Shown: positions 751-20,094 of the stretch, in pieces | Layout: each line of letters opens with the position of its first letter | Numbering within the stretch: position 1 is the first letter of the stretch | Assembly: GCA_964432485.1 (NCBI GenBank) | Contig: CAYSNP010000001.1 | Span: 22,043 to 86,042, forward strand | Length of the DNA stretch: 64,000 nucleotides | Origin: an uncultured Christensenellaceae bacterium | GTDB taxonomy: Bacteria; Bacillota; Clostridia; Christensenellales; DTU072 | Direction: 5' to 3' | Notes under the pieces: model-generated | Seen by the model: only the letters and a program-made list of their open reading frames with translations | Told to the model about the DNA's origin: nothing | Database searches by the model: none | Program-made: the position numbers and the translations under genes

Positions 751-751
751 T

Positions 752-1915
752 ATGAGCAGAACTATTGTGGTCAGATATGGAGAATTGTTTTTAAAAGGTG
801 CTAATAGGCACTTCTTTCAGTCGCTGCTACAAAGGAATATAGAAGCCGCCCTAAAACCTTTTTGCCATAAAATTATCAAGACCCAAAGCCGCATTTATAT
901 TGAAGATTTTGAGCTTAATGTGCAAGATGAGATAATAAATGCTCTTAGTTGTGTTTTTGGCATTTATAGCATAAGTGTTGCTATAAAAATACCTTCGAAA
1001 ATGCAACAGCTTAAGGAGGCTTGTTTAGCACATTCTCCTAAAGAAGGCAAGTTTAGGGTTTCGGTAAACAGAGCAGACCCAAAAATAAGCCAGCGTTCTA
1101 TGGATATAGCTGCCGATATTGGTGCATATATGCTTGCCAATACAGATAAGTTAAAAGTGGATTTATTTAATTTTGATTTTGAAGTCAAGGTAGATATGCG
1201 AGAAAACGGGTATTCGTATATATATTTTCACGATATACTTGCTCAAGGCGGCTTGCCCGTCGGCAGTTCAGGCAAAGGGTTACTGCTGCTTTCCGGCGGT
1301 ATTGACTCTCCCGTTGCAGGCTGGCTAATGGCAAAGCGCGGTATGCGCATATCCGCTGTTTACTTTCATAGCTTTCCTTATACCAGCGAGCTTGCCAAAC
1401 AAAAAGTGTTAGATTTAGCCGCTCTTATTAGCAAATATACTTTGCCGATTAGCGTATTTATTGTACCTTTTACCGAAATTCAGCAAGCTATCCGCACATC
1501 TTGTCCCGCTGATTATATGATTGCAATAATGCGTAGATTTATGGTAAGAATTGCGGAAAAGATTGCTAAAAATCAGGAAATAGGGGCTCTTATTACCGGT
1601 GAAAGTTTAGGGCAAGTAGCTTCCCAAACTTTAGAAAGTCTTACTTCTACCGGTGCAGTTACCAATTTGCCGATTTTTAGGCCGCTGATTGGGATGGACA
1701 AAACGGAAATAATTGCTTTGGCCAAAAAGATAGCTACTTTTGAAACCAGCATTTTACCTTATGAGGATTGTTGCACAATATTTGTGCCTAAAAATCCAAT
1801 AATCAGACCAAAAATTGAGGTAGTGGAAAAGATAGAGCAAGCGCTGGATATAGATGCTCTTATTACCAACGCCATTGAAAATGTTGAAATTGAAACTTGC
1901 GTTCATAACTGCTAA
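752..1915 (+). CDS. thiI: tRNA 4-thiouridine synthase / sulfurtransferase ThiI
   Basis: ATG at 752 gives MSRTIVVRYGELFLKGANR, a typical ThiI N-terminus. The THUMP-like middle and PP-loop SGGIDSPVA are present. The ORF-track start at 686 overlaps the upstream gene and is less likely. Confidence 0.9.
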   Translation: MSRTIVVRYGELFLKGANRHFFQSLLQRNIEAALKPFCHKIIKTQSRIYIEDFELNVQDEIINALSCVFGIYSISVAIKIPSKMQQLKEACLAHSPKEGKFRVSVNRADPKISQRSMDIAADIGAYMLANTDKLKVDLFNFDFEVKVDMRENGYSYIYFHDILAQGGLPVGSSGKGLLLLSGGIDSPVAGWLMAKRGMRISAVYFHSFPYTSELAKQKVLDLAALISKYTLPISVFIVPFTEIQQAIRTSCPADYMIAIMRRFMVRIAEKIAKNQEIGALITGESLGQVASQTLESLTSTGAVTNLPIFRPLIGMDKTEIIALAKKIATFETSILPYEDCCTIFVPKNPIIRPKIEVVEKIEQALDIDALITNAIENVEIETCVHNC

Positions 1916-4160
1916 GCAATACACTTTGCGCTGAGGTTTCTTCTATCCCGCCATATTCATTTTCTATTATCAGCCGATAGCGCACCAGCCCGGAATCTGC
2001 ATTTTGTTCATCAAAATATTCATAATGCCCTTCGTGTCCTTCTATTTGTGTAACTATCGTTTTAGTGTCAAGATATTCTTTAGCAATTTGGTATTTTTGT
2101 CCTCTTAAAGCAGTAAAAGAAACTTTTGGCACGCCGTCTACTAAGTTAACAGAAAAATCCTCAGGCATAGTTATATCATAAAGTGTAGAATATTCAAAGG
2201 GCGCATTTTTAATATCAAAATAAAATGCTTTAGAAAATCCTGCCGGAGTTTGAGGGCTGGCTAAAAAAAGTTCATCTTGAATATCTCTTGCTTTTAGGTC
2301 TATATCTAACATAACTATATTAGAAGGTATGCTAAAATCTTTGGGCTTGCTAGCAGTATATAAGTTTTCATAAACATACTTGCTAATTAAAGTAGGTATA
2401 GCGCCGCCTGTAAAGCTCTTAGGCAAACGACTTTCTGCCTTTTGCGTTAAATTGCCGCACCATACGCTTACCGTATGCGCAGTAGTATAGCTCATGCACC
2501 AAGCATCACTATTGAGTTCAGAGCCGCTATAGCCAACCGTGCCTGTCTTTGCCGCTACTTGATATCCCAAACTTGAAAGTTTTCTGGCAGTGCCGCTTGC
2601 TACTGCCCCCCTTAACATATCAGTCATTAAATATGCGACGGAAGGGGTAATTGCTTGCTTAAATGCAGAAGTATTTTCATAATGAAGCTCCCCGTTTGGT
2701 CCGTAAATGCGGCTAATAAAATTGACTGCCTTGTTTTTGCCCAAAGAAGCTAAAGTAGCATAAGCCTGAGTTATTTCTAGCGGAGTTACTCCATATTGCA
2801 TTCCGCCAAGCCCCAAAGCCAGATTATTATCGCCTTCCGTAAAGGAAAGTCCCATATCCGAAGCTACTTGCATACTATAGTTAAGTCCTAAATCATTTAA
2901 TAGTGCAACAGGTACGGAGTTTAAGGATTTTGACACAGCGGTACTTATATCCGTTCTACCGTAATAAGTGCCACGGTAATTTTTAGGGTTATAGCCGTTA
3001 TAAGACTTTGGCTCATCAATAACTATTGAGGCAGGAGTAATAAGGCCTTGCTCCAGCGCCGGCGTATAAGAAATAATAGGCTTAATGCAACTGCCGGGCT
3101 GCCGCCTAAGCAAAAATATATTATAGTCAAAATTGGCACTAAATGCACTGACTCCAAAGGTATTGTTATCCACCACCAAAATATAGCCCGGTATTTCTTG
3201 CCCTGTTTTTTCATTTTTCAATGCCGAAATAGCAATTGCTCTATCTGTGGACTGCTGCAAGCTCTTATCCATATAGGTATGGATAACAAAATTATTCTCA
3301 ATTAACGCCTTTTCTGTAATACCCAGTATCTTTGCGGCTTGCGCTATTGCTGCAATTGCATATTTTCCGCTATACTTATTATTTTCATCTAATACTGGTT
3401 TTTGATAAGAGTATTTTATAGCCGTATTGTAATCAGTGGCATTTATAAAATCGTTCTTTAGCATTACATTTAATGTTAAGCTCATCCTTTTTTGCGCATT
3501 ATCTAAGTTATTGAGTGGAGAATTACTGTTTGGGCTGCGTACGATTCCCGCAAGCATTGCTGCTTCTGCAATCTCTATATCTTTAGGTTCCTTATCAAAT
3601 AGCGTCTTGCAGGCTTTATCTATACCGTATATTCCGTTGCCAAAGTAAATTGCATTGAGATACATTTCTAATATAGCCTCTTTTTTATACTTCTTTTCGA
3701 TTTGGCGGGCAATCCGTACTTCTTTTAGCTTGCGCTCCAAGGTTTTCTTACTATCTAGCTGTGTATTTTTCGCCAGTTGCTGCGAAATTGTAGAAGCACC
3801 TTCTTTAATGCAACCTGCTTTGATATTGTGTACAAGCGCACCGCCAATCCTATAAAAATCAACCCCTTTATGCTTAAAGAAGCGCTTGTCTTCCAGTGCT
3901 ACAAATGCATTTACTATATTGGGGCTAATATCTTTGTATTCGGTATATTCATTTAGGCTGGAGTGATATAGGACTTCTTCCCCTTGAGAGTCCAGAACTT
4001 TTGCTTTAGCGCTGGGCGATTTTATTTTTTCGTCATTTAGCCCCGCTCCAAAAAATGTTTCCAAAAAGCTGATACTGCCCATTATGGCAATGATAATAAG
4101 TAAAAAGACAATTATATTTTTAATAGTTTTAGGCTTTCTTTTTTTTGCTTTTGATTTCAT
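1863..4160 (-). CDS. class A penicillin-binding protein (GT51 glycosyltransferase + transpeptidase, PBP1A family)
   Basis: N-terminal basic stretch plus TM helix. GT51 motifs EDKRFFKHKGVD and STISQQLAKN. Transpeptidase motifs SCIKP (SxxK) and KTGT. Extra C-terminal domain of about 140 aa. Confidence 0.9.
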   Translation of the reverse strand: MKSKAKKRKPKTIKNIIVFLLIIIAIMGSISFLETFFGAGLNDEKIKSPSAKAKVLDSQGEEVLYHSSLNEYTEYKDISPNIVNAFVALEDKRFFKHKGVDFYRIGGALVHNIKAGCIKEGASTISQQLAKNTQLDSKKTLERKLKEVRIARQIEKKYKKEAILEMYLNAIYFGNGIYGIDKACKTLFDKEPKDIEIAEAAMLAGIVRSPNSNSPLNNLDNAQKRMSLTLNVMLKNDFINATDYNTAIKYSYQKPVLDENNKYSGKYAIAAIAQAAKILGITEKALIENNFVIHTYMDKSLQQSTDRAIAISALKNEKTGQEIPGYILVVDNNTFGVSAFSANFDYNIFLLRRQPGSCIKPIISYTPALEQGLITPASIVIDEPKSYNGYNPKNYRGTYYGRTDISTAVSKSLNSVPVALLNDLGLNYSMQVASDMGLSFTEGDNNLALGLGGMQYGVTPLEITQAYATLASLGKNKAVNFISRIYGPNGELHYENTSAFKQAITPSVAYLMTDMLRGAVASGTARKLSSLGYQVAAKTGTVGYSGSELNSDAWCMSYTTAHTVSVWCGNLTQKAESRLPKSFTGGAIPTLISKYVYENLYTASKPKDFSIPSNIVMLDIDLKARDIQDELFLASPQTPAGFSKAFYFDIKNAPFEYSTLYDITMPEDFSVNLVDGVPKVSFTALRGQKYQIAKEYLDTKTIVTQIEGHEGHYEYFDEQNADSGLVRYRLIIENEYGGIEETSAQSVLLSSYERKFQFQHFQWRW

Positions 4161-4224
4161 CTCCTATAGTATTTAATCCTTAATGCGTAATATGTAAATA
4201 ATTTGCGTAAAGCTGCAGATATAC

Positions 4225-4254
4225 TTGAATTGCTCTTAGTTGGTAGTATATAAT
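4225..4254 (+). promoter_or_regulatory. putative sigma-A promoter of miaB (TTGAAT-N18-TATAAT), possibly giving a leaderless mRNA
   Basis: TTGAAT at 4225-4230 and TATAAT at 4249-4254. The ATG at 4262 follows after only 7 nt, and no Shine-Dalgarno is visible (TAATTAATAATATG). Confidence 0.4.
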
Positions 4255-4261
4255 TAATAAT

Positions 4262-5581
4262 ATGGAGAAGTTTTATAAAATCATCACTTATGGTTGTCAA
4301 ATGAACCTTCATGACTCTGAAAAGATTGCAGGTATGCTTGAGGACAAGGGCTATCTTGCAACTGCAGACGACAATAAGGCTGATATAATTGTCTTTAACA
4401 CTTGCTGTATCAGACATACTGCCGAGAGAAAAGCACTTGGCAACATATCAGCATATAAGCAATTCAAAGAAAGTAATCCAAAAATAATACTTGCTGTAGT
4501 TGGCTGTATGAGTCAGCAACCTGAAATTAATAAATTATTAACGGACTCTTATCCTTTTATAGATATTGTGCTTGGCACAGGCAACCTTGCTGCTTTTAGC
4601 AAGGCTATAGATGCTAAGTTAAGAGAAAACCTTAGAACTAGTTGGCGCAGGCTGGACGAAAAGCCTTTAATTGACGAAGGCTATCCGCTTGTCCGCACTA
4701 GCGGAGCGAATGCTTGGCTGGATATCACTTACGGTTGTAACAATTTTTGCTCTTATTGTATAGTGCCTTATGTCAGAGGCAGAGAAAGAAGCAGAGATGA
4801 CGGATTGATAGTAAAAGAAGCGGCCGCTCTTATAGCGCAAGGATATAAGGAAATTACTTTATTAGGTCAAAATGTGAATTCCTATTACTATAACGGAGTA
4901 GATTTTGCCGCTTTGCTTGAAAGGGTCGCTAAGCTGGACGGGGATTTTAGACTAAGATTCCTTACTTCTCATCCTAAAGACCTTTCGGAAAAAGTAGTTT
5001 GTGCTATTGCTTGCAGCGAAAAGATTTCTAAGTTCATTCATTTGCCTGTACAAGCAGGCAGCAATAAAGTTTTGGCAAGTATGAATCGAAAGTATACCAG
5101 AGAGCATTACCTATCACTAATAGAAATGATTAGAAACAAACTGCCTAAGGCAGGGATTACCACAGATATTATGGTGGGATTCCCCGGTGAACAAGATAAG
5201 GACTTCCAAGATACTCTTGATTTGGTGCGGCAAGCACGCTTTAGTTCGGCATTTACTTTTAAGTACAGCAGGCGCAAGGGGACAACTGCCGACCAAATGG
5301 AGCAGCAAGTACCTGAAGATGTTAAAAAGGCTAGGATAAGGGAGCTGATAAGCACGCAAAACCAAATTACGCTTGAGCTTAGTAAGGACTATATCGGAAA
5401 GACCGTTCGTGTGCTTGTAGAGGACAAAAGCTCTCGAGCTGCTGATACGCTTTGCGGCAGAGAAGATACCGGGAGATTAGTTAATATTGAGGATGCCGAT
5501 AGTCGCATAGGCGACTTTTGCAATGTGCTGATTACTCATACTAAAGCATCTTCTTTATGGGGGAGGGTAGCAAGTGAGTAA
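4262..5581 (+). CDS. miaB: tRNA-2-methylthio-N6-dimethylallyladenosine synthase MiaB (radical SAM methylthiotransferase)
   Basis: N-terminal KIITYGCQMN motif, radical-SAM cluster CNNFCSYCIVP, and a C-terminal TRAM-like end. Confidence 0.9.
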   Translation: MEKFYKIITYGCQMNLHDSEKIAGMLEDKGYLATADDNKADIIVFNTCCIRHTAERKALGNISAYKQFKESNPKIILAVVGCMSQQPEINKLLTDSYPFIDIVLGTGNLAAFSKAIDAKLRENLRTSWRRLDEKPLIDEGYPLVRTSGANAWLDITYGCNNFCSYCIVPYVRGRERSRDDGLIVKEAAALIAQGYKEITLLGQNVNSYYYNGVDFAALLERVAKLDGDFRLRFLTSHPKDLSEKVVCAIACSEKISKFIHLPVQAGSNKVLASMNRKYTREHYLSLIEMIRNKLPKAGITTDIMVGFPGEQDKDFQDTLDLVRQARFSSAFTFKYSRRKGTTADQMEQQVPEDVKKARIRELISTQNQITLELSKDYIGKTVRVLVEDKSSRAADTLCGREDTGRLVNIEDADSRIGDFCNVLITHTKASSLWGRVASE

Positions 5582-8204
5582 ATTATCACCAATGATGACT
5601 CATTACAAACAGCTTAAAAAGGACTATCCTGACACTATTATTTTTTATAGGTTAGGGGACTTTTACGAAATGTTTTTTGACGATGCGCTAATAGCTTCAG
5701 AACTGCTTGGGCTTACGCTAACCGGCAGAGATTGCGGACTGGAGCAAAGAGCGCCTATGTGCGGAGTGCCTTATCATGCGGCGGAAGGCTATATTGCCAA
5801 ACTGATTAATGCAGGGCAAAAAGTTGCAATTTGTGAGCAACTGACAGCCCCGGAAGACCAAAAAGGGCTTGTAGAGCGAGATGTGATTAAAGTAATTACC
5901 GCAGGCACTCTTACAGAAGAAAGTATGCTTGACGAGCGCGCCAACAACTACCTTGCTTGCGTATATCTTACCGATAAAGCGTATGCAATAGCCTGGTGCG
6001 ACATTTCAACGGGCGAATTTCAGGTGTTTGAGCAAAAGGGCAATGATTTTGCACAAATTGAGCAGCATCTTCTTAAAATCGAACCCAGTGAAATTATAGG
6101 CAACACCCTTTTTGCCGATAATAAGTTAAAGTTAGAGCTATTCAAAAGTGCGCATAATGTCTTTTTTCAGCAGTTTTACGATTATGCTTTTGATATAGAC
6201 AACGCCAAAGCAGCCATACTTACCCATACGGGAGCATATGACTTAAAGGTTTTTGGGCTGGAGGGCAAACCTATTGCCGCAGGATGCGCCGGAGCTTTGC
6301 TAGAGTATATTTATACCACGCAAAAGACAGCTATTGCGCATATCAATAATATTGTATACTTGAATCATAAAGACTATATGTTTTTGGATTACAATTGCAA
6401 GCGTAACTTAGAACTTACCCGTTCGATGTACGACAATAGCAAGCAAAACACCTTGCTTTGGGTACTTGATAACACTTATACCAGTATGGGCGCAAGAGAG
6501 CTTGTTAAGGTGATAGAAAATCCGCTGCTGGATTCTGATAAGATAAATAAGCGGCTTGACGCTGTGCAAGAGCTTATAGCATATGCTCCGCTTAGAGAAG
6601 AATTGGTGCTATATCTTAAAAAGATAAAAGATATAGAAAGAATGGCAAGCAAGATTGCTTTAGGCTCTGTTAAGCCCAGAGATTGCATAGCTATAGCGCA
6701 ATCTTTGGAGCAAATTCCAAAACTCAAGAAACTACTTTTCGGTTTTCGCTGTAGCTTACTTAATGCTTGTGCTGAAAATCTTAATTCTTTAGAGAATTTA
6801 TACAGTGAACTTTTTGCGGCAATTTGTATAGAGCCGCCTGCGCAAATAAGAGATGGCGGCTTTATTGCAAGCGGATATAACGAGTTGCTTGATGAGTATC
6901 GAGATGCACAAAATAAGGGCAAAAGTTGGATTGCGGAATACGAAGCTCAAGAACGTGAGCGCACCGGTATAAAGCTACTTAGAATCGGCTACAATAGGGT
7001 CTTTGGTTACTATTTAGAAATCCCCAATTCGCAACTGTCGCTTGCCCCTTATGCTTATCAGCGCAAGCAGACACTTTCTACCGGCGAGCGCTTTATAACT
7101 GAGGAGCTAAAAGCAGTTGAGGAGCGTATTTTGGGCGCAAGCGAAAAGGCTGTTGCCTTAGAGCTGGAATTGTTTAGCAACCTTATCAAAATCTTAAAAG
7201 GATATATTCAGCCGCTGCAAAGCAATGCTAAAATCATTGCTGCAATTGATGTGTTATGCTCATTTGCACAAGTGAGCATTCGTAACAATTACAGCAGGCC
7301 TACAATTAATAAAAAGGTTTCTGCAATAAATATCAAAAATGGCAGGCATCCCGTGCTAGAAGCGCTAATGGCAGAAAATGAATTTATTGCCAATGATACT
7401 TTTATAGATAAACAAGACCGCACCCATATTATTACGGGGCCGAATATGGCAGGCAAAAGTACATATATGCGACAAGTTGCGCTTATTACGCTTATGGCGC
7501 ATATAGGTTGTTTTGTCCCTGCAGATAAGGCGGAGATTGCATTGACGGATAAGATTTTTACTAGGGTAGGCGCAGGCGATAACCTTGCGCAAAGGCAAAG
7601 CACCTTTATGCTGGAAATGATAGAAGTGGCTAATATTCTCAATAACGCTACTCAAAAAAGTTTATTGATTTTAGACGAAATAGGACGAGGCACAAGCACC
7701 ATTGACGGACTATCTATTGCATGGGCTATTATGGAGTATATTACCGAAAAAATAAAGGGAAAGGCATTGCTTGCTACTCATTTTCATGAGCTTACCGAGC
7801 TGGAAAACTTTGCACCTCATGTAAAAAACTTTAGAATTCTGGTTAAAGAAGAAGGCGACGGAGTAGTTTTTCTTTACAAGATTAAGAGAGGGGGCACTAA
7901 CAAAAGTTTTGGTATCGAAGTTGCGGGACTTGCAGGAGTAAAAAGGCAAGTTATTCAAAGGGCAAAGGCAATTATGAACTCCTTGCTCCAATCGCATGAG
8001 TTTGGCGGCAATCTTAGAGAAAAGCTAAAAAATGCAGATGAAAATGAAGCAAGCAGCACAAGCGATTATAGCGATGATAAAAATATTTTGTTAGAAAATC
8101 TGTTAAACATAGTTGGGCAGGTAAAAATAGAGGATATAACACCTTTGGAAGCAGTATCAGCATTGGCGCAATTAAAAGCCTTGGCGGAAGGCAAAAATGG
8201 CTAA
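5574..8204 (+). CDS. mutS: DNA mismatch repair protein MutS
   Basis: GTG start preceded by GGGGGAGGG. N-terminus LSPMMTHYKQLK, Walker A GPNMAGKST, and DEIGRGTST. 876 aa. Confidence 0.97.
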   Translation: MSKLSPMMTHYKQLKKDYPDTIIFYRLGDFYEMFFDDALIASELLGLTLTGRDCGLEQRAPMCGVPYHAAEGYIAKLINAGQKVAICEQLTAPEDQKGLVERDVIKVITAGTLTEESMLDERANNYLACVYLTDKAYAIAWCDISTGEFQVFEQKGNDFAQIEQHLLKIEPSEIIGNTLFADNKLKLELFKSAHNVFFQQFYDYAFDIDNAKAAILTHTGAYDLKVFGLEGKPIAAGCAGALLEYIYTTQKTAIAHINNIVYLNHKDYMFLDYNCKRNLELTRSMYDNSKQNTLLWVLDNTYTSMGARELVKVIENPLLDSDKINKRLDAVQELIAYAPLREELVLYLKKIKDIERMASKIALGSVKPRDCIAIAQSLEQIPKLKKLLFGFRCSLLNACAENLNSLENLYSELFAAICIEPPAQIRDGGFIASGYNELLDEYRDAQNKGKSWIAEYEAQERERTGIKLLRIGYNRVFGYYLEIPNSQLSLAPYAYQRKQTLSTGERFITEELKAVEERILGASEKAVALELELFSNLIKILKGYIQPLQSNAKIIAAIDVLCSFAQVSIRNNYSRPTINKKVSAINIKNGRHPVLEALMAENEFIANDTFIDKQDRTHIITGPNMAGKSTYMRQVALITLMAHIGCFVPADKAEIALTDKIFTRVGAGDNLAQRQSTFMLEMIEVANILNNATQKSLLILDEIGRGTSTIDGLSIAWAIMEYITEKIKGKALLATHFHELTELENFAPHVKNFRILVKEEGDGVVFLYKIKRGGTNKSFGIEVAGLAGVKRQVIQRAKAIMNSLLQSHEFGGNLREKLKNADENEASSTSDYSDDKNILLENLLNIVGQVKIEDITPLEAVSALAQLKALAEGKNG

Positions 8205-10050
8205 AATAAACTTACTTGACAGCTCAATATTTAACTTACTTTCTGCCGGTGAAGTGGTGGAGAACCCTGCTTCTATTGTAAAAGAGCTAGTAGAAAACAG
8301 CATAGATGCGGGAGCTACCGAAATAAGCGTGAATATTTATGGCGGCGGCATAAAATCTATTGTTGTTACTGATAACGGAGTAGGGATAGAGCCCGATGAG
8401 TTGGAAAAAGCGGCATTGCCCCATGCTACAAGCAAAATTAAAGAAGCGCCAGATTTGCAAAGCATTGCAACTCTTGGATTTAGAGGAGAAGCCCTGCCCA
8501 GTATTGCCGCAGTATCCGAGTTGGAAATAAAATCCAAATATATAGATGCCGAGCATGCCAAAATGATAAAGATTAAAGGCGGCCAAATACTAGCTTCCCT
8601 TTCAACTTCTCTAGCTAAAGGCACTTCGGTAAAAGTCGGCAACTTATTCTTTAACACTCCTGCCCGCCTAAAGTTTTTAAAATCTCCGGGAGCGGAACAA
8701 GCGGCAATTACGCATACTTTAAAGAACTTGGCGCTTTCGCACCCTTTTATTGCATTTAGATATTTTCAAGAGGATAAAGAAGTTTTTTCCACTTACGGCA
8801 ATGGGCTGGAGGAAACGGCAAATATTATATATGGTAAAGAAATAGTAGGAAACTTAATTAAGATAGATATTGAGGATAGGGGAATATTTATACAAGGATA
8901 TATTAGCAGCCCAAAAATATTTAAGAATAATAAAAGGCAGCAAACGCTAATTATTAATTCCAGAGTACTATCTGCTCCGGAAGTGCAAGGTGCAATACAT
9001 AATGCTTATGCTCATAGATTAATGACTCGCTGCTACCCAATATATGTTTTGGATATTGTTATGCCATTTGACACCTTAGATGTAAATGTACATCCTCAAA
9101 AAGCAACTGTCAGGTTAGCCAATGCCCGCACCATTTGTTCTGTGGTTTATTATGCAGTAAAAAATGCTTTGGAGGAATATGAAAAGGCGCAAGTAGCACC
9201 TTTAACCTCTGCAAGCAACTTAAAAGCGGATGCTACTCAATTTATAAAAGAGCAAGTTGCCGCTGACAATGACAATGCAGAAAGCGTAATTCTTGACCAA
9301 AGCAGCAGCTTGCAAGACAGGCTCTTGAAAGCATATAAATACACTCCAAAGGAAAGCAATAGTAGCACTTTTGCACAAGAAAGGGCTGTCGGTATTGTTA
9401 GTGCCAAATCAAGCGACCCTTTGCTTGCGGCCAAGTTTAAAGAAAAAACTGCGCCCATTCAAGATGCTATGCATAGTCTGCCGCAAGATGCAACCTATAA
9501 AATCATAGGTCAAGCCTTTGACACTTATATTATAGTAGAAATGGGACAGGAGCTTATTTTTATTGACCAGCATGCAGCTCACGAGCGCATTATATTTGAT
9601 AGGATGCTTTCTGATTTTGCGCAAGGCGCTCCGTCACAACTGTTGCTTACTCCTTATATTTACAGTTGTCCATATGATGATATATCATATTTAACTGATT
9701 TTCTGCCTAATTTAGCTAAAGTTGGCTTTGAAATTGAGGAGTTTGGCGGCAATCATTTTAAAATTAGTGCAATACCTAATAATATTGTGGGCCTGGAGCT
9801 TACAGCATTTTTAGATAGCATACTAAAAGACAAATATTCCGACAGCAACGAGCTTTTAGAAGAATATATAGCCAAAAAAAGCTGTAAAGCGGCAATTAAA
9901 GGCGGCGATAGCCTAAATAAAGAGGAAATTGCCTATGTAATGGATTACTTTATAGCCAACTCTTTGCCAATGCATTGCCCTCATGGCAGACCTACCTTAA
10001 TTAAGTTTAAAAGAAAAGAATTAGAGGCCTTATTTGGCAGAATTAAATAA
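8197..10050 (+). CDS. mutL: DNA mismatch repair protein MutL
   Basis: GHKL ATPase motifs ELVENSIDAG and DNGVGI. The C-terminal dimerisation region carries QHAAHERI. The start overlaps the mutS stop by 8 nt. Confidence 0.95.
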   Translation: MAKINLLDSSIFNLLSAGEVVENPASIVKELVENSIDAGATEISVNIYGGGIKSIVVTDNGVGIEPDELEKAALPHATSKIKEAPDLQSIATLGFRGEALPSIAAVSELEIKSKYIDAEHAKMIKIKGGQILASLSTSLAKGTSVKVGNLFFNTPARLKFLKSPGAEQAAITHTLKNLALSHPFIAFRYFQEDKEVFSTYGNGLEETANIIYGKEIVGNLIKIDIEDRGIFIQGYISSPKIFKNNKRQQTLIINSRVLSAPEVQGAIHNAYAHRLMTRCYPIYVLDIVMPFDTLDVNVHPQKATVRLANARTICSVVYYAVKNALEEYEKAQVAPLTSASNLKADATQFIKEQVAADNDNAESVILDQSSSLQDRLLKAYKYTPKESNSSTFAQERAVGIVSAKSSDPLLAAKFKEKTAPIQDAMHSLPQDATYKIIGQAFDTYIIVEMGQELIFIDQHAAHERIIFDRMLSDFAQGAPSQLLLTPYIYSCPYDDISYLTDFLPNLAKVGFEIEEFGGNHFKISAIPNNIVGLELTAFLDSILKDKYSDSNELLEEYIAKKSCKAAIKGGDSLNKEEIAYVMDYFIANSLPMHCPHGRPTLIKFKRKELEALFGRIK

Positions 10051-10094
10051 TATAATTATAAAAATCAACCTAAAATAGAAGTATTAGGATAAGA

Positions 10095-11324
10095 ATGGAT
10101 ATAAATCAAGCACGCTTTTTAGTATTACAAGCCGAACAAGAAGCAAAAGACAGCTTTAGCACCATAGAGCAAATAGCATTATATAATCAAGAAAAAGTGC
10201 TGGAAGCATTTAGCAAAGCGAAAGTAGCTCAAAGGCATTTCTATCCCTCAACAGGTTATGGATATGATGATGCTTCTAGGCGCACCTTATCAGAAGTGTA
10301 TGCAAAATGCTTTAAGATAGAGGATGCATTAGTTTCACCGTTGATTTCAGGCGGTACAGGCGCTCTTTGCTTATCTTTATTTGGACTGTTGCGACCTTCT
10401 GACCTTATGCTATCTATTAGCGGCAAGCCTTATGAAACCCTTTCTAGGGTAATAAGCGGCTCTGGCACAGGCTCTTTGCAAGATTTTGGTATAAAATATC
10501 ACGAAATTGCTTTGGCTAATGGCGATTTTGATTTACAAGCAATATCAAAATATATTAAAGAAAATAAGGTAAAATTAGCTTATATACAACGCTCCAGAGG
10601 TTACGAGTTCCGAAGAGCATTAAGCGTAGAGCAAATAGGGCGTGTTTGCTCAATTATTAAGAAAATAGATCCAAATTGTATAGTTTTATGCGATAATTGC
10701 TATGGAGAGTTTACCGAATTATATGAGCCTAGCGAGGTTGGCGCAGACCTTATTATTGGCTCATTAATTAAAAATCCCGGTGGGGGGCTAGCGCCGACAG
10801 GCGGCTATGTAGCAGGTAAACTGGCATATATTGACGCAATTTCCGGCAAATTGACCGCTCCGTCAGTAGGGCGGGCTGTAGGTTCGTATGCGGCAAGCTA
10901 CCGACCATATTTTCAAGGGTTTTTTATGGCGCCTTCTACCGTAAGCTATGCCCTTAAAGGCAATGCTTTAGCTTCGTATATCTTTACCAAGTTAGGCTAT
11001 AATGTGCTTCCTCTGCCCGGCGAGATACCTCACGATATAGTTGTAGCAATTAAGTTTAATACCAAAGAAGAATTAATTGCATTTTGCCAATCTGTGCAAT
11101 ATGCCTCTCCGGTAGACGGTTTTGTTACAGCTTGCCCCGGACCAATGCCCGGATATAGTCATGAAGTAATTATGGCAGCAGGGACTTTTGTACAAGGCGG
11201 CTCATTGGAGCTTACCGCAGATGCTCCAATTAGAGAGCCATATATTGCATATCTGCAAGGCGGCCTAACCTATGAGCATATTAAAATTGCTCTTATAAAG
11301 ATATTGCAAAGTCTGGATAGATAA
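10095..11324 (+). CDS. YnbB-type PLP enzyme (methionine gamma-lyase / 'aluminium resistance' family)
   Basis: Motif HFYPSTGYGYDDASRRTLSEVYA and an overall length of 409 aa match the family usually found downstream of mutL in Firmicutes. Confidence 0.8.
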   Translation: MDINQARFLVLQAEQEAKDSFSTIEQIALYNQEKVLEAFSKAKVAQRHFYPSTGYGYDDASRRTLSEVYAKCFKIEDALVSPLISGGTGALCLSLFGLLRPSDLMLSISGKPYETLSRVISGSGTGSLQDFGIKYHEIALANGDFDLQAISKYIKENKVKLAYIQRSRGYEFRRALSVEQIGRVCSIIKKIDPNCIVLCDNCYGEFTELYEPSEVGADLIIGSLIKNPGGGLAPTGGYVAGKLAYIDAISGKLTAPSVGRAVGSYAASYRPYFQGFFMAPSTVSYALKGNALASYIFTKLGYNVLPLPGEIPHDIVVAIKFNTKEELIAFCQSVQYASPVDGFVTACPGPMPGYSHEVIMAAGTFVQGGSLELTADAPIREPYIAYLQGGLTYEHIKIALIKILQSLDR

Positions 11325-11453
11325 TAAGCCTTACAATAAGATATAATTACCTTTTAGCCCTATTTTGATAACAATACCCCCTATCTATTCGTTAAACCTG
11401 TATTTTGCGAATAGATTTATAACTTAAATTTCCTAGTACCCTATTCTGATTTC

Positions 11454-11561
11454 GTCTTTGCAGGGGACGCGTTAAGCAGGCTTGCCGGTGGCAAGTCTGT
11501 AGGGGGAGCCCACGAGCAAATGCGGGAGCATTGCGAGGGTATAATCAGTGAAGCAATCCAG
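11454..11561. repeat. family B copy 1 (108 bp)
   Basis: GTCTTTGCAGGGGACGCGTTAAGCAGGCTTGCCGGTGGCAAGTCTGTAGGGGGAGCCCACGAGCAAATGCGGGAGCATTGCGAGGGTATAATCAGTGAAGCAATCCAG. Confidence 0.9.
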
Positions 11562-11619
11562 TTCTAGAGCCTTAATCCCTATTTTCTCTTTTACATAAAG
11601 CAATCCAGGCCCCTAAAAA

Positions 11620-12075
11620 GTCATTGCGAGGCACGAAGCAATCCAGACTCCAGAGGGTTGCTCCCTGTTCTCCAGAGGCTTGCTCCTTATTTGCAGAGGC
11701 TTACTCCCTGCCCTACCAATCTCACCTTAACTTTTTGCCAAAGACAAAAAATCTCATTATGAGCCTCGCTCATAATATCATTTGCATAAGCAAATATAAC
11801 TTTGCGGCTTGTCCGCAAAATCTCATTGCACAGAGCCTTGCTCCCTTGTCTTTGCGAGGCACGAAGCAATCCAGACTCCAGAGGCTTTGCTCCCTGTTCT
11901 CCAGAGGCTTGCTCCTTGTTTGCAGAGGCTTCCTCCCTGCCCTACCAATCCCACCTTAACTTTTTGCCAAAGACAAAAAATCTCATTATGAGCCTCGCTC
12001 ATAATATCATTTGCATAAGCAAATATAACTTTGCGGCTTGTCCGCAAAATCTCATTGCACAGAGCCTTGCTCCTT
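11620..12075. repeat. family V, tandem pair 1 (two 228-bp units: 11620-11847 and 11848-12075)
   Basis: Each unit reads GTC(A/T)TTGCGAGGCACGAAGCAATCCAGACTCCAGAGG ... CCTTAAC, then four hairpins, then ATCTCATTGCACAGAGCCTTGCTCC. The period is exactly 228 bp. Confidence 0.9.
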
Positions 12076-12162
12076 ATTTTATTGTATTATGGTGAAGCTG
12101 TGCTTTGCGGGATTGATTGCTGGATTGCTTCGGCACTTTGTGCCTCGCAAAGACGTTAGAAA

Positions 12163-12270
12163 GTCATTGCAGGCGACGCGTTAAGCTGAGTTGCCAGTGG
12201 CAAGTCTGTAGGGGGAGCCCACGAGCAAATGCGGGAGCATTGCGAGGCTATAATCAGTAAAGCAATCCAG
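12163..12270. repeat. family B copy 2 (108 bp)
   Basis: Same order and length as copy 1, with about 8 substitutions. Confidence 0.9.
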
Positions 12271-12310
12271 CCCCAGAGCCCTACTCCTTGATTGCTGAGG
12301 CTTGCTCCTT

Positions 12311-12426
12311 GTTAAATTGCAGCAAACTCTCTAAATATCACCATATTGCTTTCGCACAAGAATAATTGTTCGTTATTACATTCAAATTGAATTTGCTTGT
12401 GTGCTCTGCACAAGAATAATTGTTCA
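12311..12426. repeat. family U module 1 (box - ATTCAAATTGAAT palindrome - box)
   Basis: GTTAAATTGCAGCAAACTCTCTAAATATCACCATATTGCTTT + box 12353-12372 + palindrome 12380-12392 + box 12407-12426. Confidence 0.9.
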
Positions 12427-12658
12427 AGTGCTTCTTTTTAATTTGAAATTCAGCAGTGCTTCGCGGGACTGGATTGCTTCGGCACTTTGTGCCTCGCAAA
12501 GACAAGCTGTGCTAGCGTATGCCCTAGATTGCTTTGTCGCGCTTGCTCCGCGCAATGACGATTTCCAATCCTTGTTGGTAATTATTTATGATGGAAAGCC
12601 CCTATTTCGTCTTTGCGAGCGACAGCGAAGCAATCCAGAGTTCGGAGGCCGGCTCCTT

Positions 12659-12776
12659 GTTAAATTGCAGCAAACTCTCTAAATATCACTATATTGCTTT
12701 CGAACAAGAATAATTGTCCGTAATCATATTCAAATTGAATTTGCTTAATTGCTTTCTGTACAAGAATGATTGTTCG
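12659..12776. repeat. family U module 2
   Basis: Same architecture as module 1; boxes at 12701-12720 and 12757-12776. Confidence 0.9.
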
Positions 12777-12912
12777 CAATCCAGACTCCAAAGGGTTGCT
12801 CCTTGTTCTCTAGAAGCTTTGCTTCTTGTTTTATTGCGTTATGGTGAGGCTATGCTTGCGTTTGCTCTGGTTTGCTTCGGCACTATCGTTCCTCGCAAAG
12901 ACGAGTTAGGAA

Positions 12913-13020
12913 GTCATTGCAGGCGGTGCGTTAAACAGGCTTGCCGGTGGCAAGTCTGTAGGGGGAGCCCGCGAGCAAATGCGGGAGCATTGCGAGGGTA
13001 TAATCAGTGAAGCAATCCAG
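12913..13020. repeat. family B copy 3 (108 bp)
   Basis: Preceded by the same CTGG(T/A)TTGCTTCGGCACTATCGTTCCTCGCAAAGACGAGTTAGGAA element as copy 4. Confidence 0.9.
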
Positions 13021-13060
13021 CCCCAGAGCCCTACTTCTTGATTGCTGAGGCTTGCTCCCT

Positions 13061-13176
13061 GTTAAGTGCAGCAAACTCTCTAAATATCACCATATTGCTT
13101 TTGCACAAGAAAAATTGTAAGTAATCACATTCAAATTGAATTTACTTAATTGCTTTTGCACAAGAATAATTGTTTG
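13061..13176. repeat. family U module 3
   Basis: Same architecture, with a 1-nt deletion (GTTAAGTGCAGC); boxes at 13102-13121 and 13157-13176. Confidence 0.9.
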
Positions 13177-13355
13177 AATACTTCTTTTTTAATCTGCAAT
13201 TTAGCAAGGCTAACGCTTGCTTTGGATTGCTTCGGCACTAATGTTCTTCGCAAAGCCGGTTTATAATACTTTTTTTTAAATATTTATGGTGCAATGCCCT
13301 AGTTCGTCTTTGCGAGCAGTAGCGAAGCAATCCAGATTCCAGAGGCTTGCTCCTT

Positions 13356-13472
13356 GTTAAGTTGTAGCAAACTCTCTAAATATCGCCATATTGCTTTCGT
13401 ACAATAATAATTGTTCGCAATCATATTCAAATTGAATTTGCTTAATTGCTTTTGCACAAGAATAATTGTTCA
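13356..13472. repeat. family U module 4
   Basis: Boxes at 13398-13417 and 13453-13472. Confidence 0.9.
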
Positions 13473-13562
13473 ATATCTCTTTTTTAATCTGTAATTAGGC
13501 AACGCTTACACTTATCCTGGATTGCTTCGGCACTATCGTTCCTCGCAAAGACGAGTTAGGAA

Positions 13563-13670
13563 GTCATTGCAGGCGGTGCGTTAAGCAGGCTTGCCGGTGG
13601 CAAGTCTGTAGGGGGAGCCCGCGAGCAAATGCGAGAGCATTGCGAGGGTATAATTAGCGAAGCAATCCAG
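13563..13670. repeat. family B copy 4 (108 bp)
   Basis: About 96% identical to copy 3 across 13517-13670 versus 12867-13020. Confidence 0.9.
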
Positions 13671-13691
13671 ACTCCAGAGGGTTGCTTCCTT

Positions 13692-14127
13692 GTCTTTGCG
13701 AGGCACGAAGCAATCCAGACTCCAGAGGGTTGCTCCCTGTTCTCCAGAGGCTTGCTCCTTATTTGCAGAGGCTTACTCCCTGCCCTACCAATCTCACCTT
13801 AACTTTTTGCCAAAGACAAAAAATCTCATTATGAGCCTCGCTCATAATATCATTTGCATAAGCAAATATAACTTTGCGGCTTGTCCGCAAAATCTCATTG
13901 CACAGAGCCTTGCTTTCTTGTCTTTGCGAGCGGTAGCGAAGCAATCCAGACTCCAGAGGGTTGCTCCCTGTTCTCCAGAGGCTTTGCTTCTTGCCCTACC
14001 AATCCCACCTTAACTTTTTGCCAAAGGCAAAAAATCTCATTATGAGCCCCGCTCATAATCTCATTTGCAAGGCAAATCTCACTTTGCAACTTGTTGCAAA
14101 ATCTCATTGCACAGAGCCTTGCTCCCC
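13692..14127. repeat. family V, tandem pair 2 (13692-13919, 228 bp; 13920-14127, 208 bp with a 20-bp internal deletion)
   Basis: 13692-13919 is nearly identical to 11620-11847. The fourth unit is the most diverged and carries compensatory stem changes. Confidence 0.9.
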
Positions 14128-14174
14128 GTCTTTTCGAGGCACGAAGCAATCCAGACTCCAGAGGGTTGCTCCCT

Positions 14175-14291
14175 GTTAAGTTGCAGCAAACTCTCTAAAT
14201 ATCACCATATTGCTTTCGCACAAGTATAATTGTCCGCAATCATATTCAAATTGACTTTGCTTAATTGCTTCTGCACAAGAATAATTGTTTG
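14175..14291. repeat. family U module 5
   Basis: Boxes at 14217-14236 and 14272-14291. Confidence 0.9.
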
Positions 14292-14967
14292 AATACTTCT
14301 TTTTTAATCTGCAATTCAGCAAGGCTAACGCTTGCCCTGGATTGCTTCGGCACTTTGTGCCTCGCAAAGACAAGCTGTGCTAGCGTATACCCTGGATTGC
14401 TTTGTCGCTTTCGCTCCGCGCAATGACGGTTTATAAACCTTTTCGGTTGTTTTTTAAGGTGCAATATCCCTATTTTGTCTTTGTGTGCGATAGCAAAACA
14501 AAGATATTTTGATTTATTCAAATTGAATTTGTTTAATTGCTTTCAACACAAGAATAATTGTTCGTAATCTAAACTCCAAAGGGTGCTGCCTGTTTTATTG
14601 TGTTTTGTGAAGATGTGCTTCGACTGGATTGCTCCCTATTTTATTGTGTTATGTGAAGCCCTGCTTGCGTGGGGTTGGATTTATAAACAAGGAGCAGTAC
14701 TAGCGCAGGTCCTTTTGCACAAGAATAATTGTTCAAGTGCTTCTTTTTAATTTGAAATTCAGCAGTGCTTCGCGGGACTGGATTGCTTCGGCACTTTGTG
14801 CCTCGCAAAGACAAGCTGTGCTAGCGTATGCCCTAGATTGCTTTGTCGCGCTTGCTCCGCGCAATGACGATTTCCAATCCTTGTTGGTAATTATTTATGA
14901 TGGAAAGCCCCTATTTCGTCTTTGCGAGCGACAGCGAAGCAATCCAGAGTTCGGAGGCCGGCTCCTT

Positions 14968-15085
14968 GTTAAGTAGCAGCAACCTCGCTAAATATCGCCA
15001 TATTGCTTTCGAACAAGAATAATTGTCCGTAATCATATTCAAATTGACTTTGCTTAATTGCTTTTTGCACAAGAATAATTGTTCG
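14968..15085. repeat. family U module 6
   Basis: Boxes at 15010-15029 and 15066-15085. A partial module (palindrome plus one box) lies at about 14513-14564. Confidence 0.9.
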
Positions 15086-15440
15086 AATGCTTCTTTATTT
15101 TATTGAGTTATGGTGAAGCTGTGCTTCGTGGGACTGGATTGCTTCGGCACGATACACGCTAAGGCGCGATGAAATGCACTTGCCATATGCAAGTGTTGAA
15201 ATACATTTATTGCATAAATGGTGCAATACACGCTAAAGCGTGGTGAAATACATTTGCTTTTGCAAATGATTAAGGTGAGATTTATAAACAAGGAGCAAGT
15301 GCTAGCGCAAGTCCTTCCGCACAAGAATAATTGTTCTCAATCCAGACTCCAAAGGGTTGCTCCCTATTTTATTGTATTATGTGAAGCCCTGCTTGCGTGG
15401 GGCTGGATTGCTTCACGATGTTTGCAAAGACAATATTATC

Positions 15441-15468
15441 TTGATTCCTTCCTGATTTGTGTTATAAT
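15441..15468 (+). promoter_or_regulatory. putative strong sigma-A promoter of the recombinase gene (TTGATT-N16-TGtTATAAT)
   Basis: TTGATT at 15441-15446, extended -10 TG at 15460-15461, and TATAAT at 15463-15468. The ATG at 15475 is the 7th nt after the hexamer, and there is no SD. Confidence 0.5.
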
Positions 15469-15474
15469 CAAAGT

Positions 15475-16530
15475 ATGGACAGCAATTACTTTAGCAATCT
15501 AAAAAGAGAGCAATATTTTAAGCTAAATGAGTTATTAAACTCCCTACCCTCTTTTTGCAGAATGTTTTTTATTGGTATTGAGGGGGGGACGGAGGTTCTT
15601 ACACGCTTGGGTTATGCTAGGGATTTAATGATTTTTTTTGATTTTTTAGTCAAAGAAATGCCTGACCTTGATAAGGGTAAAGTAGCTGATATTACTTTAG
15701 CTGATTTGGCAAAGGTGCAAGCTATACATATAGAGCGGTATTTAAGTTATCTTTCTTATTACACCTTTAATAATAAAAGGCTATCCAATGGCGAAAGGGC
15801 AAAGGCACGAAAACTAAGTGCAATTCGCTCCCTATTTAAGTACTTATATAATAAGGACTTATTGCCTGAAAATGTGTCTGAAAAGGTGCAAACCCCTAAA
15901 TTGCATAGCAAAGAAATTGTACGACTAAATGAAGCCGAAATAGTAACTATGCTTGACAATATTGATGAGACCGCTTTCCCCTCTGATAGGCAAAGGACAT
16001 ATAATAAACATACACGTATAAGAGATAATGCTATTATTACGCTAATGCTTACCACAGGTATAAGGATAAGCGAATGTGCGGGGCTGGATTTTCAAGATAT
16101 TGATTTAGAAAATCACTCTTTTATAGTGACACGCAAAGGCGGCAATAGAGCAATACTCTATTTTTCTAATGAAACAGCGCAAGCTCTTGAGGCATATTTT
16201 GATGAGCGTGAAGTTAAATTATCTTCTCTTGGCAAGTCTATTCAAGGTCCCCTATTCCTTTCTTTGCAAAACAAGCGTCTAAGCGTTAGAGCTATTCAAA
16301 ACATAGTTAAAAAGTATGCCACAATAAGCGCACCGCTTAAAGAGATTTCGCCCCATAAGCTAAGGAGTACTTATGGCACACAGCTATATCGCAGCACCAA
16401 AGATATATATGTAGTTGCAGAAGTGCTTGGGCATAAGGATATTAACACAACCAAAAAGCATTATGCCGCAATAAGCGAGGATATTAAAAGAGAAGCATCT
16501 AATAAAGTAATTCTGCGTAAACAAAAGTAA
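15475..16530 (+). CDS. tyrosine-type site-specific recombinase (XerC/XerD-like integrase family)
   Basis: Catalytic signature TGIRISE (Arg), HKLRSTYGT (H-x-x-R), and LGHKDINTTKKHY (His...Tyr). An N-terminal SAM-like core-binding region is present. ATG at 15475 is preferred over the TTG at 15457. Confidence 0.85.
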   Translation: MDSNYFSNLKREQYFKLNELLNSLPSFCRMFFIGIEGGTEVLTRLGYARDLMIFFDFLVKEMPDLDKGKVADITLADLAKVQAIHIERYLSYLSYYTFNNKRLSNGERAKARKLSAIRSLFKYLYNKDLLPENVSEKVQTPKLHSKEIVRLNEAEIVTMLDNIDETAFPSDRQRTYNKHTRIRDNAIITLMLTTGIRISECAGLDFQDIDLENHSFIVTRKGGNRAILYFSNETAQALEAYFDEREVKLSSLGKSIQGPLFLSLQNKRLSVRAIQNIVKKYATISAPLKEISPHKLRSTYGTQLYRSTKDIYVVAEVLGHKDINTTKKHYAAISEDIKREASNKVILRKQK

Positions 16531-20019: not shown

Positions 20020-20094
20020 AGGGGAGTGGCTCAACGGTAGAGTAGTGGTCTCCAAAACCATTGGTTGCGTGTTCGAATCGCGTCTCCCCTGCCA
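20020..20094 (+). tRNA. trnW: tRNA-Trp (anticodon CCA), with encoded 3' CCA
   Basis: Manual cloverleaf: acceptor AGGGGAG/CTCCCCT, D arm GCTC/GAGT, anticodon stem GTGGT/ACCAT with loop CTCCAAA, T arm GCGTG-TTCGAAT-CGCGT, discriminator G, and CCA. Confidence 0.95.

Follow-up and report, generated by a model that had tools for sequence, protein, structure and literature searches.

The window analysed here, a 64,000-nt stretch of contig CAYSNP010000001.1, holds 4.15 kb without a credible gene between the end of a ynbB-like gene (PF06838) at 11324 and the ATG, at 15475, of an xer-like gene encoding a tyrosine recombinase. Our analysis indicates that this interval is probably an intergenic mosaic comparable to the Neisseria intergenic mosaic elements (NIME) and to the bacterial interspersed mosaic elements (BIME) of Escherichia coli, built on a short hairpin, termed H, that is related to the repeats of the Ssn nucleases, and that it is independent of the adjacent Xer recombinase. 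The first-pass annotation had described a 4.1-kb repeat island free of open reading frames (ORFs) and unique in the window, and this was borne out: taking stop-to-stop ORFs of at least 110 aa, all uncovered stretches of at least 250 bp in the 64 kb lie inside 11325-15444. Of the extent first proposed for it (11340-15456) the repeat island itself is real, while the first ~90 bp (11325-11416) proved to be a conserved leader; the island proper runs from ~11417 to 15440, and within the window all repeat families are confined to it.

The consensus of H is GTC[A/T]TTGCGAG - variable part - CGAAGCAATCCAG, with the layout GTC-[ATTGC-GA-variable stem-loop-GAA-GCAAT]-CCAG, an imperfect hairpin present in ~27 copies. 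The H box CGAAGCAATCCAG gives 27 matches in the window against 1.4 expected; 26 of them lie in the island, 13 per strand, in agreement with the more than 20 copies in both orientations counted at first reading. By size, H occurs in forms of 27, 30, 35/36 and 108 nt, and its flanks are directional, GTC standing directly 5' of the palindrome and C directly 3' in 22 full copies of the 23 listed, the copy at 13222-13257 having GGC instead. Folded as single-stranded DNA (ssDNA), the 35-nt form is predicted to pair a TTGC/GCAA stem and a GGCAC/GTGCC distal stem around a GA/GAA internal loop (-6.7 kcal/mol, z -2.3). The 108-nt form corresponds to the family B of the first-pass annotation, whose four copies were found again at 11454, 12163, 12913 and 13563; its sequence is a canonical H broken after GTCATTGC (GTC[A/T]TTGC) by 71 nt, with CATTGC at both insertion ends, from which we infer that B arose by insertion into H. 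The alternation of H and other modules produces a GC wave, with a GC content of 0.55 in H and 0.39 in the segments between H copies, the latter being also the value for the window.

Cutting the island at the H copies leaves segments of 8-252 bp that belong to recurrent families, all in one orientation, and that are combined into recurrent units, namely [H> U <H], tandem [H> 22-mers V] and [<H 20 bp <H S H>]. The 116-nt U is present in six copies and one partial copy, as had been recognised from the start, each arranged as [H> U <H]; its box, the 18-mer GCACAAGAATAATTGTTC, occurs 15 times, always on the plus strand, and the 22-mer 16 times in the island, against 0.13 occurrences expected by chance in each case. 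The four copies of V form the two tandem pairs first reported, one at 11620-12073 (period 229, 2.0 copies at 97%) and the other at 13692-14127. The other segments are a 20-bp linker, a 49-bp S spacer and the T, K and G modules. V on its minus strand and G on its plus strand are hairpin trains with UGAGAU, UGAUAU or UGAAAU linkers, and both fold better than shuffled sequence (z -3.0 to -3.8). Larger blocks are duplicated as well (300 bp at 98%, 239 bp at 99%, in addition to the tandem V pair at 97%), the stretch 14716-15015 being a 98% duplicate of 12407-12706.

A pseudogene or decayed gene was ruled out by the 1-nt indels between copies (such as the one between the copies at 13061 and 14175, which had been pointed out before and is visible in the sequence), by a module order that varies among strains and by the lack of protein-level similarity in tblastn comparisons; a CRISPR-like array was ruled out as well, the spacing being irregular and the 'spacers' themselves repeated. 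The U box contains the dyad GAACAA-N6-TTGTTC (extended TTGCACAA-GAATAA-TTGTTCAA; 15 sites, window 12354-15336) and stands twice in each U unit, the two copies lying ~55 bp apart on either side of the palindrome ATTCAAATTGAAT, an iteron-like arrangement that could represent a protein-binding site. LexA boxes of Gram-positive bacteria have N4 spacing, and the U box was rejected as a LexA box because, as GAAC-N10-GTTC, its spacing differs from N4.

The island was also found in other data sets. Assemblies L367 (ENA) and L368 (JGI) match the window at ~95% identity between mutL/ynbB and 11583, share its left junction and then continue with the same module families reordered, L367 reading 'B H U <H H> U <H S H> U ...' where the window reads 'B H H W V H W V T <H B H U ...'. 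A Logan contig assembled from short reads agrees with window 95-11498 at 100% identity and breaks off within the first repeat. With these assemblies, at least three data sets confirm the island at this site, and they show it to be dynamic. An assembly artefact, by repeat expansion or mis-joining, might be suspected from the break of the short-read Logan assembly at the first repeat and from the presence of 240-300-bp blocks at 98-100% identity, which short-read assemblers could mis-order. However, the starting base and the first module of the island agree in three independent assemblies, L367 covers 2.6 kb of comparable mosaic, arrays of this sort stand at other loci of another metagenome, and most repeat copies differ by 5-25%, so that they are not collapsed identical repeats; we therefore consider an artefact extremely unlikely.

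In more distant relatives the same place on the chromosome is occupied by a plain spacer. L122, a Christensenellales metagenome-assembled genome carrying the closest named Xer homologue among the matches listed (75% identity), and L123 (77%) both keep the order mutS-mutL-(miaA)-ynbB-xer-lexA-padR, with a ynbB-xer spacer of only 230-277 bp in which the leader and the xer promoter are conserved; an exact-pattern search found no island module in either. The ynbB-xer interval, which the first-pass annotation had singled out for comparison among strains, is thus variable in module order and, in L122 and L123, devoid of the island. Conversely, a k-mer comparison identified L143, L129 and L170, from metagenome Ga0265293, as module-bearing contigs: copies of B, V, U, T and G, 75-96% identical, lie on these three non-syntenic contigs, next to a gene for a surface protein of >3404 aa, to a GH88 gene and to pdxS with a methyltransferase gene, and no recombinase is present on them as fetched. 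Exact patterns for the U box, the H+22-mer junction and the B core had given nothing in all fetched loci.

These comparisons bear on the proposal that the array is a substrate for a tyrosine recombinase, integron-like or Xer-dependent, which would act for example at the U-box dyad to insert, delete or shuffle modules. The two do lie close together: as first described, the -35 hexamer TTGATT, at 15441, comes 10 bp after the end of the last H (15403-15431), and the recombinase gene starts 44 bp after this H; moreover, the U box has an 8-6-8-like dyad geometry, with 15 copies in one orientation, and module order differs between strains. Nevertheless, the linkage of array and recombinase is not kept. 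The xer-lexA-padR genes, with the same promoter and leaderless start, persist in L122 and L123, which lack both island and modules, while the same modules stand at three other loci without a recombinase within the fetched contigs. The Xer-like protein has a great many homologues (7728 proteins at E<=1e-40; those with names among the 120 listed come from Clostridia/Bacillota), and its best models are XerS/XerC/XerD-like, whereas it falls far short of the integron-integrase models (62 bits against a cut-off of 265 for TIGR02249, 37 against 435 for NF011946). No attC-like R''/L''-L'/R' organisation and no cassette ORFs were found in the array. Since the island-less relatives keep xer-lexA, arrays occur without a recombinase and Xer stays below the integron-integrase cut-offs, the association is best seen as coincidental synteny, and the recombinase-substrate array put forward in the first-pass annotation becomes very unlikely. 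The adjacent xer-lexA genes are conserved neighbours with a conserved promoter of their own and are not functionally tied to the array.

We then consider H in other genomes, as retrieved by exact-pattern scans of species-representative genomes, JGI metagenomes and IMG/VR viral contigs, each of which returned at least 120 stretches (for the JGI metagenomes even with the rarer GTCTTTGCGAG variant alone). In the viral contigs (L244-L363) H often occurs as inverted doublets; the scans of viral sequences for the U box and the B core gave three single matches and none, respectively, with no sign of phage origin. The titled H matches listed are mostly from Pseudomonadota, especially Bradyrhizobium, and further ones from Bacteroidota, Chloroflexota, Patescibacteria, Melainabacteria, Spirochaetes, Helicobacter, Legionella and Rickettsiales; H is therefore a pan-bacterial hairpin of the repetitive extragenic palindromic (REP) type. 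The likeness to nests of BOX, REP or miniature inverted-repeat transposable elements (MITE), suggested at first reading, is supported by this distribution and by the recurrence of the modules at unrelated loci of a related metagenomic organism without a recombinase. As for an ordinary MITE pile-up, which had been expected to show scattered modules with no recombinase association at an invariant locus, dispersal without a recombinase is indeed seen, in the related organism rather than in the genome studied here, and the locus is not invariant, strains ~95% identical being different.

A tblastn search of 2.67 Mb of H-bearing loci found seven Ssn-like single-domain GIY-YIG genes of ~95 aa (the product in L075, which was checked against Pfam, matches PF01541). 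The ATTGCGAG..CGAAGCAAT hairpin lies at most 150 bp from five of the seven, and on both sides, as [H> gene <H], in three of them by automated count, with L142 a fourth by eye. Given one or two H per 8-kb locus, we estimate this adjacency to be far beyond chance. Clustering of the ORFs within 300 bp of H in 120 loci showed no recurrent family, and the GIY-YIG link emerged only with a targeted motif and tblastn search. By this association, H would be classed in function as a Ssn-related (GUCCY) hairpin variant, although it is not a member under the published pattern. The commonest H loop in other phyla has 5 nt (84 of 167 copies), giving G-CGNAG-C, which we take to match the very stable DNA mini-hairpin d(GCGNAGC); this likeness would fit recognition at the DNA rather than at the RNA level. 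At several loci (L142 770-800, L180 2242-2300 and L214 140-170) the upstream H is so close that the stop-to-stop Ssn-like ORF reads through its right box, the read-through peptides beginning RSNPV or RGNPV, so H may overlap the translation start region of the Ssn-like gene.

The closest parallel to the island is found in Neisseria. In NIME arrays, RS elements of 50-150 bp, belonging to more than 100 families, stand between dRS3 inverted repeats and are clustered in long arrays, which have a GC wave of 55.8% versus 45.2%, are syntenic but strain-variable, and receive opportunistic insertions of insertion sequences (IS); they were reported as not seen outside Neisseria (Bentley 2007, PMC1797815). 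The island shares with the NIME (Parkhill 2000; Bentley 2007) a GC-richer inverted repeat of 20-36 bp, used in both orientations, that delimits AT-richer short repeat families in an intergenic array. Its inter-H segments measure 8-252 bp, in families U (x6), V (x4), S, T and K, compared with ~50-150 bp (19-214 bp) in NIME. The GC wave, the shared position with an order varying between strains, the opportunistic IS insertion and the identical outer flanks of the hairpin (GTCATT...AATCCAG) are further likenesses. On the other hand, the core of H is ATTGC-GA...GAA-GCAAT while dRS3 is ATTCCC-N8-GGGAAT, so that H does not match dRS3; the host here belongs to a Gram-positive-type Clostridia lineage; the island modules are unrelated in sequence and two are hairpin trains; and there is one array in 64 kb, whereas Neisseria has hundreds of NTS copies, often beside surface-protein genes.

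The NTS (CGTCATTCCCGCGMAVGCGGGAATCYRG, which contains dRS3) is bound as ssDNA and cut a few nt upstream by SsnA, a GIY-YIG protein of 94 aa in Neisseria (Chenal et al. 2025, PMC11893778). According to the same work (PMC11893778), the GTC before the NTS palindrome matters for cleavage and the C just after it is the most critical position for binding, the identity of the loop is dispensable, ssn genes are typically flanked as NTS-ssnA-NTS, and the Ssn nuclease does not act on RNA. H resembles these repeats in its directional GTC 5' flank, in the C 3' of the palindrome and in a loop that tolerates length variation and insertions, and the [hairpin> ssn <hairpin] layout is seen for the H type in other genomes too; it differs in that it fails the published degenerate pattern of the Ssn-related motifs (SRM) and that no ssn gene was found in the 64-kb window. 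A second published relative is the GUCCY hairpin, in which GUC and CY border a short stem-loop and near which COG2827 URI-endonuclease genes may be over-represented (Weinberg et al. 2010, PMC2864571). H, as GTC-[ATTGC..GCAAT]-CC, answers to this description, and it has in common with GUCCY the frequent inverted pairs and the COG2827 (URI/GIY-YIG) association. GUCCY was, however, presented as a candidate RNA of Bacteroidetes and Proteobacteria; having no Rfam entry, it was compared by its description, and the alignment rows examined have other stems (GCUCCAAGCU, AUCCUGAUCU) (PMC2864571).

Several observations weigh against the reading of the island as a NIME/BIME-like mosaic on an Ssn-related hairpin. 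The published SRM pattern, HGTCWYN(0-2)YYVSBRHN(0-5)WNVSBRGN(0-2)RNCYNB, has no match on either strand of the window, since the stem of H is ATTGC and not ATTCCC. No GIY-YIG gene was found in the 64 kb by regular expression, by tblastn (E >0.6) or by Pfam comparison of most of the larger ORFs. Ssn proteins are found mostly in Gram-negatives (PMC11893778), and none of the 120 H-bearing genome stretches listed has a Bacillota, Clostridia or Firmicutes title. Many H copies of the island are short forms of 27-30 nt, which keep the boxes with little structure and whose DNA folds are weak (-3.1 to -3.5 kcal/mol, z ~0 to -1), the NTS folding more strongly in the same comparison (-8.9 kcal/mol, z -4.3). 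Finally, there is no other H within the 60 kb of flanking chromosome, dispersal being seen only in the related metagenomic organism.

Chenal et al. draw a parallel between Ssn/NTS and RAYT/REP/BIME (PMC11893778), and the island does resemble E. coli BIME and REPIN/RAYT systems in having an imperfect palindrome that alternates in orientation with fixed linker motifs, systems thought to derive from a domesticated nuclease or transposase acting on single strands. It could be a classical REP/BIME region, with H mobilised by a REP-associated tyrosine transposase (RAYT, an IS200/IS605-like Y1 transposase) or serving as target of IS110-family elements; the REPIN-like inverted doublets of H, 20-60 bp apart in many genomes, and the BIME-style alternation with fixed linkers in the island would agree with that. 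Yet the hairpin signature is another one: H lacks the GTAG/CTAC head of classical REPs and has the NTS-type GTC...C signature. The enzyme also differs (an HUH Y1 transposase against GIY-YIG), the small GIY-YIG gene being the only recurrent neighbour of H found in the 2.67 Mb of loci, with no RAYT or other transposase among the annotated window ORFs. BIME linkers, moreover, fall far short of the U and V modules, which measure 180-250 bp. Mobilisation by RAYT or targeting by IS110-family elements is thus quite improbable.

The hairpin trains raise the question of a transcribed structured RNA, with V (minus strand), G (plus strand) and perhaps B as a cluster of small RNA genes of the Gut-1 type (RF01706). 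The minus strand of V aligns to the full RF01706 model in all four copies (39.3, 32.6, 32.6 and 19.1 bits, best E 1.5e-5) as three hairpins with four UGA[G/U]AU linkers, the plus strand of G uses UGAAAU, and the Gut-1 seeds share this design of hairpins with GUGAAAU or GUGAUAU linkers. The modules fold better than shuffles (z -3.0 to -4.4), the V minus-strand hairpins are followed by T runs in a terminator-like manner, and two pairs in hairpin 1 change through G-U intermediates. Against this, the V scores of 19-39 bits are all below the gathering score of 50, and the homologous copies in L143 and L129 were undetected by Rfam at E<=0.1; the Rfam scan proposed for the island hence gave no family at gathering score and the sub-threshold Gut-1 similarity of V only. 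The covariation term is not favourable (+0.72, from 5 distinct sequences), promoter-like sites number 7 against 7.5 expected, and hairpins are equally expected for DNA-level elements. No H boxes are present in the published Gut-1 alignment file, V being here a module of an H-bounded DNA mosaic, and an RNA array leaves H unexplained, though H dominates the array and is tied to a DNase inactive on RNA. Judged from the sequence, the RNA explanation appears unlikely.

If the island is a NIME/BIME-like mosaic on an Ssn-related hairpin, the array would have arisen at a formerly plain spacer of 100-200 bp and grown as H-bounded units inserted themselves next to hairpins already present or inside them, together with local segmental duplication and unequal recombination, and it would still be undergoing reshuffling between strains. 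Its [H> X <H] units would descend from [H> ssn <H] with the gene lost. The AT-richer, lineage-specific modules would play the part of the Neisseria 'RS elements'. The array would encode no protein, and its hairpins would most likely be sites for a Ssn-type single-strand nuclease encoded elsewhere in the genome; its effect, if any, would be that of a hot spot of single-strand cleavage and recombination, or else the hairpins may simply persist as selfish DNA. A Ssn nuclease of this organism might actually read the island hairpins, a possibility we take seriously while leaning slightly to the other side. A bolder proposal, which we regard as rather improbable, is that [H> U <H] and B are non-autonomous derivatives of [H> ssn <H]; Ssn GIY-YIG nucleases would then drive distinct ssDNA-based mobile elements with MITE-like offspring, the arrays being nests of them and the Gut-1-type trains cargo or filler rather than free-standing small RNA genes.

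The island (11417-15440; H elements 55% GC, inter-H segments 39% GC) is described here from left to right, features being on the plus strand unless the minus strand is given. It begins with a B-type H of 108 nt (11454-11561, a canonical H with the 71-nt insertion), a partial H with the right box only (11596-11608, from the box search) and a short 27-nt H (11620-11646). V unit 1 (11647-11847) consists of three 22-bp repeats (11648-11710) and the hairpin train, with a sub-threshold Gut-1 match on the minus strand at 11746-11828; a short-form H (11848-11874) separates it from V unit 2 (11875-12076), which is tandem to unit 1 (97%). A T module (TTTATTGTATTATGGTGAAGC...; 12064-12119, with further copies at 14580-14635, 14626-14681, 15085-15140 and 15354-15409) is followed by a full 35-nt H hairpin (12120-12154, minus), the second B-type H (12163-12270), U unit 1 as [H> U <H] (12271-12468), a 35-nt H (12469-12503, minus) and the H variant v (GTCATTGCGCGGAGC...ACAAAGCAATCTAG; 12524-12559, minus). 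The AT-rich 49-bp S spacer (12560-12608), 100% identical to 14869-14917, leads to a 30-nt H (12609-12638), U unit 2 with a 22-bp repeat and a T module (12639-12866) and a 36-nt H (12867-12902, minus).

The central part continues with a B-type H (12913-13020), U unit 3 (13021-13221), a degenerate 36-nt H (13222-13257, minus), a 30-nt H (13306-13335), U unit 4 (13336-13516), a 36-nt H (13517-13552, minus) and the last B-type H (13563-13670). The second V pair is introduced by a short-form H (13692-13718): V unit 3 (13719-13919) is 100% identical to unit 1 over 196 bp and has a sub-threshold Gut-1 match on the minus strand at 13818-13900, and after a 30-nt H (13920-13949) comes the diverged V unit 4 (13950-14127, 89-91%), whose minus strand gives the strongest Gut-1 match, at 14029-14109 (39.3 bits; gathering score 50). 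Beyond it lie a short-form H (14128-14154), U unit 5 (14155-14336), a 35-nt H (14337-14371, minus), a variant v (14392-14427, minus) and a degenerate H (GTCTTTGTGTGCGATAGCAAAACAAAG; 14477-14503). The composite segment 14504-14777 comprises a partial U, two T modules, a partial H (14624-14636, minus), a K module (from 14680) and a U tail, and is followed by a 35-nt H (14778-14812, minus), a variant v (14833-14868, minus), the other S spacer (14869-14917), a 30-nt H (14918-14947), U unit 6 with a T module (14948-15133) and a partial H with the right box only (15134-15150, minus). The right end is formed by the G module (15151-15280), with four hairpins, UGAAAU-type linkers, a fold z of -3.0 and an 86% identical copy in L143, by a segment with a K module, a U-box remnant and a T module (15281-15402), and by the last, degenerate H (15403-15431, minus).

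On L143, an IS5-like element (10930-11828; overlapping ORFs 10968-11414 and 11399-11803, ends GGGTTGTAGCGAAATG/CATTTCGCTACAAC) sits inside an H, between GTCATT and ATTGCGCGG, with ATT apparently duplicated. The same contig has another hairpin train at 10440-10640, with at least five different short hairpins, the fixed linker UACAUAAUG and a fold z of -4.4, which adjoins the H array downstream of the surface-protein gene (>3404 aa). Contig L231, a low-GC metagenome contig, shows at 60-450 six tandem units of ~57 bp with one H each (TTTGACATTGTATTAGA-CTGGATTGCTTCG..CTCGCAAAGAC-GGAAAG...), beside a MutS-like gene.

Both borders of the island are conserved outside it. On the left, the non-repeat leader 3' of ynbB (11325-11416, plus strand), also present in the island-less L122 and L123, contains the inverted repeat ATCTATTCG-N15-CGAATAGAT (window 11383-11416, L122 9863-9896, L123 1249-1282), which has no T run and so could serve for regulation or protein binding instead of termination. 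On the right, the xer-like gene appears leaderless, with a good promoter of sigma-70 type (TTGATT-16-TATAAT), an extended TG, the ATG 7 nt after the -10 and no ribosome-binding site; the same promoter layout occurs at window 15441-15477 (plus strand), L122 9968-10003 and L123 1426-1461. The rest of the window is compact core chromosome, with thiI, a class A penicillin-binding protein gene, a miaB-like gene, mutS, mutL, the gene for the ynbB-like pyridoxal phosphate enzyme, xer, lexA, padR, rnhA, proC, purB, ispH-S1, cmk, surE and further genes to frr, pyrH, tsf and rpsB. The mutL-ynbB gap (10050-10095) is 44 bp and has no miaA, which L122 carries there (7638-8531), and 51916-59331 encodes a 2471-aa protein with glucoamylase-like, GH94 supersandwich and GH94 catalytic domains (cyclic beta-1,2-glucan synthase or phosphorylase-like). 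No transposase, phage or GIY-YIG gene is among the annotated window ORFs, a tRNA at 20020 was all that the Rfam search of the window returned at gathering thresholds, the island had no blastn match in the plasmid and phage collections, and its sequence strings were found in the literature only as chance primer matches. The host is a Christensenellales-like Bacillota chromosome of a gut or anaerobe-type Clostridia lineage.

For annotation, the 4-kb 'gene desert' beside lexA is explained by the island, and the spurious ORFs there should not be called. The orphan Gut-1-type hairpin train gains a possible genomic context, and the near-identical strain pair with different arrays offers a system for working out how such arrays grow. 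The hairpin variant ATTGCGAG...CGAAGCAAT is unmatched by the SRM pattern in the window yet flanks Ssn-like genes elsewhere; censuses of Ssn-related repeats may therefore be underestimates. Our results suggest that the NIME-type design, a directional GTC...C hairpin scaffold carrying a strain-variable mosaic, exists also in a Clostridia lineage, so that the island carries a system characterised only recently into a new phylum and onto a new type of hairpin, without being a system of a new kind.

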